The notes beneath the pieces were generated by a model. It was not told the origin of the DNA, ran no database searches, and saw only the letters and a list, made by a program, of their open reading frames with translations. A program made the translations under genes and the position numbers. A stretch of 64,000 bases of DNA from Eledone cirrhosa (Eukaryota), in assembly GCA_964016885.1 (NCBI GenBank), contig OZ024743.1, positions 215,140,001 to 215,204,000 of the forward strand, written 5' to 3'. The first letter of the stretch is position 1; each line of letters begins with the position of its first letter. Of the stretch, positions 20,317 through 62,971 are shown piece by piece.

Positions 20317-20893
20317 TGTAAGAAGAAATTATAGACACAAATATATACCTATTATTTCTCAATGTCCCGACTGTACAGTTTCGCAGGTCACTATGCAAAA
20401 ATCTGATGTCATATAGATGTAATATTGCTGAGAGTTAAGCCAGCTTTTCAAGGGAGCAACTCAGGGAAAGAGCGCTAACTAGACACGTCCGTAGCATGAG
20501 AGAAAATCTCAAGAAGGCAGAGGGAGGCCCTATCACGTGATACACCGGTAGAGTAACCACGGAATTATAGAGACTGCTTTCAATCAAACACTATATACAC
20601 TTTCAGTCAATCTTACCACCCCACTGTAGCCTCTGTATCATATTTAGCCCCCAATCTTGACCGGTATATCACGTGATAGTGTCTCCCTCCGCCTTTTTGA
20701 GATTTTCTCGCATGCTACGGACGTGTCTAGTTAGCGCTCTTTCCCTGAGGTGCTCCTTTGAAAAGCTGACTTATCTCACACCAATATTACATCTCTATGA
20801 TATAAGATTTTTGCATAGTGACCAGCGGAACTGTACAGTCGGGACATTGAGGAAATAATAGGTATATATTTGTGTCTATTATTTCTTCTTACA
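20317..20893. repeat. Fold-back element with ~235-bp arms and a degenerate HHR in each arm
   Basis: 20317-20549 inverts 20660-20893. Right arm reads ttcc CTGAGGT gct..agc GGAA ctgtacag TC ggga; the left arm keeps GAAA. Confidence 0.85.
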
Positions 20894-21090
20894 AAGGGCG
20901 TTGGATTGCAGTAGCGGTAGAGAGTCGGACACCATGCTTTGAAGCATAGAGTTACGTCCCTTTATGATCTGAGTTCAAATCCCGCCGCGTTTAATTTTGC
21001 CTTTTATCCTTACGGGGTCGATAAAATAAAGTACCAGTAATGTACTGGTCATTGCTGGTCTAGTGCCAAAAGTCGAAACAATTATTTCTT
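20894..21090 (+). mobile_element. Octopus-type SINE (partial extra 3' copy at ~21285-21360)
   Basis: ctgagttcaaatcccgcc..gccttttatccttacggggtcgataaaataaagtaccag..gtgccaaaagtcgaaacaattatt. Confidence 0.85.
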
Positions 21091-21699
21091 ATTACTTTAT
21101 AATATGTTACACAGCTCTGATATTGAGTCAATTTAATTATTTCGATTATCTTGTCTCTCATAATCATAGAGCAACACAGATTAAGGTCGACAACACATAA
21201 TCTCACATAGTTGTGAAAAATATGTTTATATATACATGCATATGTATGCACATATATCTGTGTACCTCTCATTATTATATGTATACGGGGTCGATAAAAT
21301 AAAGTACCAGTAATGCACTGGTTAACTGCTGGCCTTGTGCCTAAAGTCTAAACAATTATTATATATATATATATATATATATGTGTGTGTGGGGGTGGGG
21401 GTGCCTGGGTGTGTCTGTGTGAGTGACCGTGTGCATTTGTATGCGTGTGTGAGGGAGTAGCAGTACTTGATACTGCAAGCAAACACATTATAATGAATTC
21501 AATAGAGGATGCGGCACTCTATTGTATGTGTATAGACAACCAGCGGCTGTGATTTTGAAGTTTGATGATGGTTGGTGCCAGATGATGTAAGGAATAAAGC
21601 TGAATTATAATCCCCTATTTTATATCTGCATTTCTGTAATCTGGATAATCATTTGAACTTTTTGACTCCCTTTCATTGAACCACATATAAATCTAACAA

Positions 21700-21995
21700 T
21701 AGTCGGTTACGACGTATAGTGACCCAGGTGATGTGATCAACAGAACAACCTGCTCCTGAAATTATCATGAAACAGCCTAAGCATTCCACACATACCCATA
21801 ACGTAGTTCTCGGGGAGATTTTGTGTAACAAAGGCTGCGACAAGGCGGGCAATTCTATTTACAGGTACAATTTATTTTTGCCAGCTGCATTGTCTGGCGT
21901 TACGTGAAATAAACATGTCGTGCTCAAGGAAGCAACGCGTCGCTGGGAATCGATCTCACGTCTTTATGATCGTAAGCCAAATACACTAACCCCCG
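21700..21995 (-). mobile_element. tRNA-derived SINE of a second family
   Basis: Minus strand begins ggttagtgt..gagatcgattcccagc (A/B-box like) followed by ttccttgagcacgac. Confidence 0.55.
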
Positions 21996-59504: not shown

Positions 59505-59520
59505 TATATATATATATATG

Positions 59521-60103
59521 AAAATTAGAATTGGTGCACTGAAGTAGAGTAGCGATGTATACATGAATGCATGCTTAGTATATTTGGCAATATATTGTAT
59601 GCTTAATTAAAAACATTTTGAAGCCCTTACGCTATTATTTAAATGTAGTGATTATGTCACTTATTTTTTTACAACAAACAAAGGGAGATAAGCTGTCAGA
59701 TCTGTTTCATACTGTTGGTAATCATCAGAGCTTAGCACTCGCCTTTGCCTGTTGAAAATTATAGATGTTGGATTCTTATAGAATACCAGTAATAATCAGG
59801 AACTGATTATACAGAGCGATTGCCGGTCCAGCAAAAATTGTAAATTAGAATTGGTGCTCTGAAATAGCGATGTATACATGAATGTATATAGAGTATATTT
59901 GGCAATATACTGTATTCTTAATTAAAAACATTGTGAAGACCTTGCGGTATTATTTTAAAGCTGTGTCTATGTCACTTATTTCTTTTTTTAACAAACAAAG
60001 AGAGATAAGCTGACAGATCTGTTTCATAGTGTTGGTAATCATCAGAGAATAGCACTCGCCTTTGCCTGTTGAAAATTATAGAATTCCAGTAATAATCAGG
60101 AAA
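59521..60103 (-). repeat. Tandem ~317-bp repeat, each unit with a hammerhead (59690-59733 and 60007-60050)
   Basis: Consensus aagct CTGATGA ttac caaca gtat GAAA cagatctg TC agctt; flanked by (TA)n on both sides. Confidence 0.85.
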
Positions 60104-60524
60104 TGATATATATATATATATATATATATATATATATATATATATATATATATATATATATATATGTTTGACGGATGGATGTAGAAGACATTCAAAACCG
60201 TAGTACAGTGTAGATATAAATTTTCATTTTATCAAGGTCAAAATTACTTCGGAGTTTTGGTGAGAATTTTTCTATTACCCTCTCTACTACACCAATTATC
60301 GAGTACTCTGGTGTGTTATGGTCCACCTGGGATCTTACCACATCCTCTTTGTTATATATATATATATATATATGCCCATGGCAGACGGGAACTAAAATAA
60401 AGAATATGTCACCAACGTTTACGATGGACAACCAAGATATATATATAATTGGTGTTGGATGCTTAAAGCGTCCGTATGCGGTGGGCCCTATGAGCACTCG
60501 ATGCCCTCGTAGAGCAGAGTATGC

Positions 60525-62971
60525 TATCACAGAAAAAAGAGAATCAGTGTTGCGACGAAAGGAATTACAATTGTTTCTCAGGCGACCAGCTCGAGGCACG
60601 ATCGATGTGGTGATCAAACCTGACTCTGAAATCACGTGGTCCTCGGATACGTTGCGATTCTACGAAGCAGATTTTCCTATTGTCCTTTAACATCGAATTC
60701 TTTCGTTTGTTGATTTAGATCCTGCTGTCGTCAATCCATGAGTGGTCAAGAATTGTACAGATCACCGGTATTTCTAGGCACTCATGGTTGCCCACTGTTT
60801 GGTTCTTCTCGTTCTCCACCTGTCAATCAAAATTTCTACATATATCAGAATTACTACTGTGGTGGGAGAGTGGCTGTAATCTTAAACGGCTGGCATCACG
60901 TCGACGTATTCGTTGTCGCTAGGCTCCCTGGTCCACAGCGGTCAGGTACACACACGCAATTATGCTGTATGTGGCAGTCATTGTAAATAATGTTGGCGGT
61001 TTTTTTTTTCATTAAAAAAAATCATAGGGATATTTAGCATAACATTTCTAGGACACAGCCTTAGAATACCCTCCACCAATACATATTTCAAAAAGGAAAA
61101 GAAAAAGAAAAAGAAAAAGAAAAAGAAAAAGAAAAAGAAAAAGAAAAAGAAAAAGAAAAAGAACGTTTTTAAATGAAAGCTTGCAACAGCATTTCAAACA
61201 GAAAGGCTATATCAGAGATGTTTTCAACAAATACACCCAATTCTACACTCACACACTGGACTCAGGGGAGCCCGCATAGGCAAGACGCCGCACATATATA
61301 GACAGATGAATTTTAATTTTAATTCTAATTTTAATTTCAAGTTTTAATTTTGTCGTTCCATGCCGCTGGTACACACGCACACAACGCCTGCCGCTAGCAC
61401 ATTACAATCATGCATACTCTCCACGTGCATTCCATATATACTGTTATGAAACTCATACCCTTTACATTCCATGTATACATCAAACCCATGCACATCCCAT
61501 ATATACTTTTTATGAAATAGATGTTACACATAACCACAATATATATAACTTGTTTGTGTACGCATGCACGGCCCACATCTATCCACAAGCCACGAGACCT
61601 GCATCATGCGCAGGCTCCCACCCAGTGCCTTAGATCACCAGCCCCCATATATATCATATAAACATTTTCACCACACACCCAAGTATTGTATGCAACTTTA
61701 TCCACACCCCGATAATGCCCGATTCCCCTCTGCATCCTTGTCATGTATGCATTCTCTTTTTCCAGAATTTTATTTTATTGTATTTTATCTTATTGTATTT
61801 TATTATTGTATATTATTTCATTATTATATTATTTTATGTTATGTATGTACAGACATTTTTATATATATGCCACCCACGGTATATGTGATTAGTGCAAGAA
61901 TATTGTGCTGCCTTAAAATTTAGGCATATTGTTCAGGTAACTTCGGATTCATACCGCCACGTGATCTGGTTGGGTCAAAGCCTCAAAAGCGTTGTCTCAT
62001 ACAATACTGTGTGTTCCATCTGCGCAGCTGCGCGTGTGAAGACGGATGAGGGGGTACTCATCAAGTATATGCCTCCGGTATGGTACCACGCGGGTGCATG
62101 AATGTATGTGTGTCCACACAGACATGCATGAGCATGGGTGTGCGCATGCCTGGGTCGATGTATCTGTCTCAGCATGTCTGCGTGGGGGTATGGATGAGTA
62201 TCTATGGATTTTCTTTTCATCTGTCTATATATGTGCGGCGTCTTGGCTATGCGCGCTCCCCTGAGTCCAGTGTGTGAGTGTAGAATTGGGTGTATTTGTT
62301 GAAAACACCTCTGATATTGCCTTTCTGTTTGAAAGGCTGTTGCAAGCTTTCATTTAAAAACGTTCTAATACAGGTTTTTTCTTTTTCATTTTGAAATATG
62401 TATTGGTGGAGGGTATTCTAAGGCTGTATCCTAGAAATGTTATGCTAAATATCCCTATGATTTGTTTAAAAGTAAAAGAATATTCCCGCCAAACATTATT
62501 TACAATGACTGCCGCATACATCATAGTTGCGGGTGTGTAACTGGCCGCTGTGGACAAGGGAGCCTAGGGACAATGAAGACGTCGAAGTGATGCCAACCGT
62601 TTAAGAACTCAGCGGTTCTCCCACCACAGTAGTAAATCTGATATATGTAGAAATTCTGATTGACAGGTGGAGAACGAGAAGAACCAAACAGTGGGCAACC
62701 ATGAGTGGCTAGAAATACCGGTGACGTGTAGAATTCTTGACCACTCATGGGATGGCAACAGGATCTAAATCAGCAAACGAAAGAATTCGATGTTAAAAGA
62801 CAATAGGAACATCTGCTTCGTAGATTCGAGACGTTTCCGAGGACCGCGCGATTTCAGAGTCAGGTTTGATCACGACATCGATCGTGCCTCGAGCTGGTGG
62901 ACCGAGAAACAATTGTAATATGTCCAATAAATTCCTTTCGTCGCGACACTAATTCTCTTTTTTCTGTGATA
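60525..62971. mobile_element. Large fold-back with ~770-bp arms and a ~900-bp spacer
   Basis: 60525-61310 inverts 62216-62971. ORFs 60738-60986 and 62521-62748 are mirror translations. Candidate HHRs at 60561-60652 (minus) and 62831-62923 (plus). Confidence 0.9.
61096..61163. repeat. (GAAAA/GAAAAA)n microsatellite expanded in the left arm only
   Basis: Directly visible; the right arm has only a short T run at the matching position. Confidence 0.9.

Follow-up and report, generated by a model that had tools for sequence, protein, structure and literature searches.

The window examined here, 64,000 nucleotides of the Eledone cirrhosa genome (contig OZ024743.1, positions 215,140,001 to 215,204,000 of the forward strand), raises the question of why eight of its inverted repeats, at 20.3, 27.8, 34.8, 48.9, 50.6, 57.1, 58.3 and 60.5 kb, carry a hammerhead ribozyme motif in each arm, with the two motifs always facing outward. 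The initial annotation, made from the sequence alone, had described a system of non-coding fold-back elements, products of Penelope-like elements (PLEs) without open reading frames (ORFs), that target (TA)n microsatellites and could yield self-cleaving hairpin RNAs. We document here the families to which the units belong, their coding parents, the outward orientation, the presence of one tail per pair and a hot spot for the inversion junction. The units are probably head-to-head insertions of PLE 3' ends in (TA)n, formed by double priming on uncleaved sense RNA and joining of the cDNA ends. The outward hammerhead pair is then the automatic result of head-to-head insertion, an arrangement that has been published (PMC8557442, PMC4209133; here and below, statements on cited work refer to the portions of the sources available to us), and the notion of a non-coding system falls away.

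Hammerhead motifs and the geometry of the pairs

All eight inverted units were recovered at their annotated positions by self-BLAST of the window, which is AT-rich and contains many (TA)n runs, and every one of the 16 arms has a type I hammerhead-type motif. In every unit the motif lies on the minus strand in the left arm and on the plus strand in the right arm, and the cleavage site is 38-89 nt from the BLAST-defined outer end (16 arms), in agreement with the ~40-90 nt given initially. (TA)n is found at both ends of six units, adjoining directly or via a tail of 40-170 bp; the right ends of the 20.3- and 50.6-kb units have no abutting TA run. Three matches in the window were obtained with a strict hammerhead descriptor, two of them in the 27.8-kb pair and one at 41.7 kb, where 30 shuffles averaged 0.03; a relaxed descriptor, tuned after the motifs had been seen, gave six, and 20 shuffles averaged 0.1. 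Degeneracy, ascribed initially to some copies, affects most of them: the relaxed descriptor is passed by only four of the 16 arms (27.8 right, 34.8 right, 48.9 left and 48.9 right) and the other 12 fail. No hammerhead was among the matches listed (150 of 196) from an Rfam scan of the window, which were mostly miRNA models on hairpins.

We also analysed one sequence per family, namely consensuses of seven families built from the 25-30 best genomic matches each and one genomic copy of the eighth (48.9), which was followed via exact patterns. The relaxed descriptor matched the sense strand in seven of these eight sequences and the antisense strand in none, and for each match 0 of 1000 shuffles reached its score; the 20.3 family lies beyond the stem III range of the descriptor and its motif was read by eye. 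The type I motif is close to the 3' end in every family sequence, and its stem III is short and self-complementary. The cores are canonical in the 27.8, 48.9, 50.6 and 58.3 families and of the U3:A8 type in the 20.3 and 57.1 families, and in the 34.8 and 60.5 families a C replacing the conserved U4 is fixed (window positions 37653 and 62837; locus L496). One of the families with C at position 4 retains intact frames and has 788 exact motif copies, so the ribozyme tolerates the substitution or the element can do without cleavage. In the 58.3 family subfamily variation was seen by eye at position 7 and in stem I.

These motifs and their orientation are real, as a selected system yielding self-cleaving hairpin RNAs from either strand would have it. 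The predicted folds speak strongly against it: for the 48.9-kb read-through transcript the hairpin has −311.8 kcal/mol compared with −135.8 kcal/mol when the hammerhead is forced, a difference of ~176 kcal/mol, and an arm alone prefers a rival fold by ~10 kcal/mol. With 12 of the 16 arms failing the descriptor and the orientation following from insertion geometry, such a system is hardly credible, and the self-cleaving hairpin RNAs suggested initially are, by these models, unlikely.

Among the fetched loci, neighbouring motifs face outward in 91 cases and inward in two (48 and two without the 48.9 loci, which had been selected as palindromes). In the five coding families a single tail is the rule, with 117 of 122 outward pairs having exactly one (by family 51/51, 27/28, 9/10, 15/18 and 15/15). 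The short 27.8 family showed one tail in 6 of 8 pairs; the corresponding values for the 20.3 and 50.6 families, 10/13 and 1/4, rest on poor references and were excluded from the tally. Each family has two discrete 3' ends, both of which are seen among solo copies. In 33 pairs it is the arm with the tail that extends further 5' and in 21 the tail-less one; the remainder are equal within 10 nt. Since the longer arm is found on either side, neither arm can always be a copy of the other, and both are best read as RNA-templated. Subfamily variants were common to both arms 107 times and not common six times (40 pairs), which indicates that both arms come from one source. No A-to-I editing signature was seen among the variants common to both arms, A>G accounting for 3 of 11.

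These data bear directly on the published reading of such structures, in which a single cDNA, or an antisense RNA serving as template, folds back on itself and is copied, with trimming of one arm by the endonuclease leaving a one-sided tail (Arkhipova et al. 2013, PMC3846280; Craig et al. 2021, PMC8557442). The 107 to 6 ratio of variants is consistent with self-priming, and hairpins that are almost perfect, with A/T microhomology, are frequent among the junctions. However, a copy cannot exceed its template, and the 21 pairs in which the tail-less arm reaches further 5' (the reverse holding in 33) are at odds with it, as are the occurrence of both 3' ends among solo copies and the position of the junction, described below, at an initiator-like CA step of the sense strand, whose 5' end bears an additional G. 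We regard self-priming as unlikely.

A fixed palindromic unit moving whole, as a miniature inverted-repeat transposable element (MITE) or foldback DNA transposon would, was not encountered; copies are mostly single arms, with differing junctions and unequal ends. The MITE as such was rejected, because junctions and ends differ among copies and many copies are single arms. The initial view of the units as PLE products with hammerheads in their pseudo-long terminal repeats (pLTRs) that target (TA)n was right.

The inversion junction and the putative start of the RNA

The junction was analysed in greatest depth in the 48.9 family, in which all counts from exact patterns are lower bounds. We counted 5,831 exact core matches; 1,630 matches include upstream context, and 1,380 copies start exactly at stem I, its first base being preceded by a non-genomic one. 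There are 852 palindromes that join within 31 nt of the first stem I base (1-31 nt between cores), compared with 20 junctions at the cleavage site counted with the same pattern design, which are thus ~40 times rarer; the small number of cleavage-site junctions indicates that the template was uncleaved. In the window, the junction of the 48.9-kb unit (49108..49109, plus strand) is a single G separating two complete stem I 5' strands, and 49109 would be the transcription start (+1). In 51 palindromes, the first 50 listed and that of the window, 47 of the 102 arms end exactly at the first stem I base, 49 are up to 7 bases short and six reach 1-3 bases further. A shared inversion junction, which the initial annotation had suggested looking for, is not a property of this family: junctions vary between copies, with A/T microhomology, templated repeats and insertions and many near-perfect hairpins, and an identical junction recurs in different subfamilies. 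The variation between copies excludes movement as a fixed unit. A fold-back end at the same place occurs in contig X5, from another organism and another study, so the hot spot is not an assembly artefact.

The hot spot falls on the A of TCA, a step that we take to be initiator-like. A G directly precedes it in 16 of the 47 exactly ending arms, where the genome has C, and a hand count of the base before +1 in the first 100 listed of the 1,380 copies gave 32 G, 48 A and 20 T. On reading 30 loci, most of the preceding A or T could be explained by the partner arm or the TA target, and most of the G could not. An extra G marks capped full-length L1 insertions and has been read as a copied cap (PMC11702581); by analogy, the non-genomic G is likely a copy of the cap, and the hot-spot base likely marks the start of the element's RNA.

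Edges of this kind were also found in other families. In the 57.1 family the ends of 17 of 20 short copies fall at −61 to −50, at a CA step ~39 nt upstream of stem I, none end at −62 to −79 and 10 further copies run through, and in the 60.5 family 12 of 30 copies end at −107 to −94, again at a CA step, with the edge ~26-29 nt upstream of stem I. In Drosophila virilis Penelope an intron ending at helix I begins 46 nt downstream of the start (PMC2377424, PMC4209133), which after splicing gives a spacing from start to hammerhead similar to that in the families here.

The same intron end at helix I (PMC4209133), and the exact coincidence of the 48.9 edge with the first base of stem I, would also fit twin copying in which the hot spot reflects stalling of reverse transcriptase (RT), or processing of the RNA, at the hammerhead fold. 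We consider this a doubtful alternative, slightly more so than self-priming. An RT is expected to stall on meeting a helix, not after completing its 5' strand, and the edges ~39 nt (57.1) and ~26-29 nt (60.5) upstream of stem I lie away from the fold. A splice site as the cause of the hot spot was rejected, as no common upstream exon is attached and the 48.9 family has no AG acceptor; the cleavage site was likewise rejected, with 20 junctions against 852 and the ~40-fold rarity noted above.

The 852 near-identical units could alternatively represent a self-propagating non-autonomous class, either MITE-like wholes or arms with an internal promoter that seed new palindromes. The tail arm does keep +1 and both start sites, and several variants occur in short copies only, for example in 17 of 124 short arms and 0 of 30 long ones, a small sample. 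Against this, junctions that vary between copies, templated insertions and the same junction in different subfamilies indicate that whole units are immobile, and most subfamily variants are present in both short and long copies; we find such a class improbable.

In the mechanism that we propose, transcription of a capped RNA would begin from an internal promoter at a site 0-40 nt before the hammerhead, the RT-endonuclease would prime on both target strands, and the uncleaved sense RNA would be copied twice, from two start sites. Where RT begins within the first copy of these sites, it would run off the cap after 200-350 nt and give the short palindromes, whereas starts at the downstream copy would give long, variably truncated arms; the two cDNA ends would then be joined to give the fold-back. 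The hammerhead would ride along and not be the maker of the fold-back. In vitro, an Anolis element has been seen to nick and extend both strands, with two internal RT starts (PMC11167929).

Several observations weigh against this interpretation. The excess of G is modest (p ~2e-4 against a crude 17% background) and could reflect untemplated addition, the central G is readable as the genomic C of the partner arm in 4 of the 51 palindromes, and no clear extra G was found in the 57.1 or 60.5 families. The 5' edge is weak in the 34.8 family, with 6 of 30 copies ending at −74 to −101, it is diffuse in the 58.3 family, and none was found in the three short families (20.3, 27.8 and 50.6). Five of the 122 pairs break the one-tail rule, three being two-tailed and two tail-less. 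Private variants occur on both arms in 11 cases and on one arm in 40, which bears on whether one RNA or two of the same source were copied. The start site and the cap are putative, read from DNA junctions. With these points set against the junction data, we lean, by a small measure, towards the stronger statement that genomic junctions settle the origin of PLE inverted repeats as twin target-primed reverse transcription of a capped, uncleaved sense RNA starting at or just before the hammerhead, with one start site per strand. If true, this reading would displace the proposed self-priming on an antisense template, and the intact young Hydra element from which the 48.9-kb unit derives would lend itself directly to experiments.

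Families, coding parents and the units of the window

Five units are 3' ends of protein-coding PLEs, four of Hydra type (34.8, 48.9, 58.3 and 60.5) and one of Neptune type (57.1), as judged from their sequences; assignment to endonuclease-containing (EN+) PLEs was by motif reading and tblastn among the families themselves, and the clades were taken from motifs and not from an RT tree. The features of EN+ PLEs in these families are a single ORF with a telomerase-like RT and a GIY-YIG endonuclease, upstream of the 3' pLTR, and in fetched copies of the 34.8, 57.1 and 60.5 families homology extends at least 1.7 kb upstream. The other three units are short and permuted; both classes that had been foreseen, truncated insertions and non-autonomous elements, are therefore present. 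The description of the units as mutually unrelated was right for DNA, in that self-BLAST finds no relation, and wrong for proteins, as four of the families encode related ones. Partial tandems forming pLTRs, with a fixed 3' end and variable 5' truncation, were found in loci L296-L299 and L496. Exact motif counts for three families genome-wide were 6,842, 13,570 and 6,104 copies, and PLE fold-back insertion accounts for a genome strewn with long hairpins.

The 34.8-kb unit (34839..37980) is a 5'-truncated Hydra-type PLE, comprising an inverted copy (34839-35576), a sense copy to 37813 and a tail (37814-37980), with hammerheads at ~34901-35013 (minus) and ~37647-37759 (plus), both with the family core that has C at position 4. 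Contrary to the statement that the units are ORF-less, it contains the C-terminal part of the RT, a CxCX5C linker and the GIY-YIG endonuclease in two frames (35557..36913, plus strand), which are 96-97% identical to an intact 808-amino-acid frame in L496. The 48.9-kb unit (48893..49457) is a young palindrome of a Hydra-type PLE 3' end (48893-49323, centre 49108) followed by a tail (49324-49457), with hammerheads at 48959-49107 (minus) and 49109-49257 (plus) that have a stem II of 116 nt. The element whose 3' end forms its arm has an intact 810-amino-acid frame in L235, which carries RWR, DKT, CxCX5C and CxxC/CxH. The whole unit of this family spans ~6.5-6.9 kb, with a 3' untranslated region (UTR) near 3.9 kb that is rich in simple repeats and the same 116-nt stem II (L296-L299, L235); in the tandem arrays (L296-L299) ~495 nt separate the hammerhead core from the start codon downstream, and the tail proves to be 5' UTR sequence that follows directly, a situation like that of the two RT starts of the Anolis element (PMC11167929).

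The full Hydra motif set (RWK-like, DKT, a CxCX5C linker, CxxC and CxH around E/N, and no CCHH) was found in the 34.8, 48.9 and 58.3 frames. The 58.3-kb unit (58187..58466) consists of a tail (58187-58251) and a fold-back (58252-58466) of a Hydra-type PLE 3' end with decayed hammerheads at ~58283-58325 (minus) and ~58393-58435 (plus); a small second fold-back of this family, truncated within the hammerhead, lies at 56290-56470. The 60.5-kb unit (60447..62971) derives from a Hydra-type PLE 3' UTR, with a tail (60447-60524), an inverted copy (60525-61310) and a sense copy to 62971, and its hammerheads at ~60559-60653 (minus) and ~62830-62924 (plus) again have C at position 4; only the linker and endonuclease part of this family was recovered, in decayed copies with Hydra-type motifs. 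Beside a copy of the 60.5 family, L495 contains an 810-amino-acid frame (4270-6699, minus strand) that looks by eye like a protocadherin ectodomain exon.

The 57.1-kb unit (57135..58174), a Neptune-type PLE 3' end, has a fold-back at 57135-58114, a tail at 58115-58174 and minimal U3:A8 hammerheads at ~57211-57246 (minus) and ~58010-58045 (plus). Its family shows DKG, a CX4CxxC linker and CCHH in a C-terminal endonuclease (L189, L192 and window 34265-34711), so that by motifs it is Neptune-type, or possibly Nematis-type. A second insertion of the family (32633..34724, minus strand) has its own GIY-YIG frame (34265-34711) and ties the 57.1 arm sequence to a coding PLE within the window. The 57.1- and 58.3-kb units are nested end to end in one TA run, and different PLE families are often nested in this way at other loci (L219, L320, L104, L362 and others).

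The remaining three units are, on sequence grounds, short permuted non-autonomous retrozyme-like units without an ORF. In their families homology ends near one unit length, with periods of ~590, 465 and 348 bp for 20.3, 27.8 and 50.6, respectively, and there is one type I hammerhead per unit. The 27.8 family forms head-to-tail dimers with a spacing of 453-470 bp, which together with the permuted units fits non-LTR retrozymes, and the 20.3 and 50.6 families form partial tandems. The 20.3-kb unit (20317..20893), a fold-back with U3:A8 hammerheads at ~20362-20458 (minus) and ~20751-20847 (plus), adjoins another repeat at its right end and no tail was seen at the locus. The 27.8-kb unit (27725..28412) has a one-sided tail (~27725-27817), a fold-back (27818-28412) and canonical hammerheads with a 50-nt stem II at 27898-27977 (minus) and 28253-28332 (plus). 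The 50.6-kb unit (50572..51112) is an old fold-back (50612-51112) with a left tail and decayed hammerheads at ~50694-50739 (minus) and ~50984-51029 (plus). These families may use the same PLE proteins in trans.

All eight units of the initial list are real, and at least two more had been missed. A ninth outward unit (41584..42490; listed region 41.6-42.4 kb) has a complete canonical hammerhead at 41686-41757 (minus) and a plus-strand partner arm truncated at the second core box; its family has 11 copies among the fetched loci. The tenth (59095..59505) is an old fold-back; its family has 30 copies among the fetched loci, and their consensus shows a canonical hammerhead and a tail on one side. 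Further fold-backs lie beside (TA)n at 16088-17132, 43624-44283, 63036-63433 and 63453-63601; the 16-kb family has a possible U3:A8 motif, and no convincing hammerhead was found at 43.6, 63.0 and 63.45 kb (3-5 copies each).

Two further decayed Hydra-type RT/endonuclease fragments, of other families, lie at 29255-30795 (plus) and 31979-32641 (minus). LINE-type RT fragments occupy 663-10273 on both strands, with RVT_1 matches on 3669-5468 and 9395-10273, and a decayed Tc1/mariner-like element with terminal inverted repeats and weak helix-turn-helix matches lies at 55353-56159. Pfam, searched with 13 window frames, gave only RVT_1 on the two LINE frames and the weak Tc1/mariner helix-turn-helix match; without any PLE profile, it gave no match on six PLE-type window fragments or on the 34265-34711 frame.

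Comparison with known systems

The elements and their layout are known, and the junction data look new. A literature search, covering mainly papers outside subscription, found no earlier twin-priming or cap account of PLE inversions, and no octopus hammerheads were found in the literature search. The origin of tandem and inverted PLE structures was named as the next task of the field by Craig et al. 2021 (PMC8557442), who described inverted 5'-truncated copies with the tail on one end and (TA)n targets; in their supplement S1/S2, Penelope-13_HM has an inverted 5'-truncated copy with a hammerhead on each strand. The Hydra-clade PLEs of that study (e.g. Penelope-13_HM and Hydra-1_Obim) resemble the families here in their RWK-like, DKT, CxCX5C and CxxC/CxH motifs, (TA)n targets, 3' hammerhead and tail at one end. 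As published they are <3 kb with a tail of 30-40 bp, whereas the families here have stem II of 50-116 nt, cores with C at position 4, tails of 65-170 bp and units of up to ~6.9 kb. Neither a junction hot spot nor a one-tail count is reported in the available text of that paper.

The minimal hammerheads of metazoan PLEs (PMC4209133) likewise have a palindromic short stem III, an extra base before stem II and the U3:A8 variant, and Cervera and de la Pena 2014 (PMC4209133) described hammerhead pairs on opposite strands 100-700 bp apart. The C fixed at position 4 in two families here was not seen in the available portion of that work, which leaves the formation of the pairs unaccounted for. Metazoan non-LTR retrozymes (PMC7229834; bioRxiv 10.64898/2026.07.22.740005) share with our short families the length of 350-590 bp, the lack of an ORF, the permuted units and the single type I hammerhead; by contrast, the families here occur for the most part as monomers scattered in (TA)n, with tails of PLE type and inversions.

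In the Adineta vaga Penelope palindromes (PMC3846280) and the D. virilis Penelope promoter (PMC2377424), head-to-head pLTRs, an optional tail, an initiator-like motif within the pLTR and an internal promoter shortly upstream of the hammerhead correspond to the arrangement described here. Arkhipova et al. 2013 (PMC3846280) favoured self-priming on an antisense template and left the strand undecided, whereas the junctions here point to sense RNA and, as far as DNA can tell, favour twin priming on capped sense RNA over antisense self-priming. The junction statistics thus bear on the open question of a sense or antisense template. The closest biochemical parallel is the Anolis Poseidon element PAc (Frangieh et al. 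2024, PMC11167929), in which both strands are cut and extended, two RT starts bound the tail, uncleaved RNA is the main template in vitro and a dimer is predicted. PAc belongs to a different clade, and in the text available its two starts are not linked to inverted insertions or to a transcription start. The 48.9 family provides an intact protein, a cap signature and a prediction, to the single base, of where the RNA begins.

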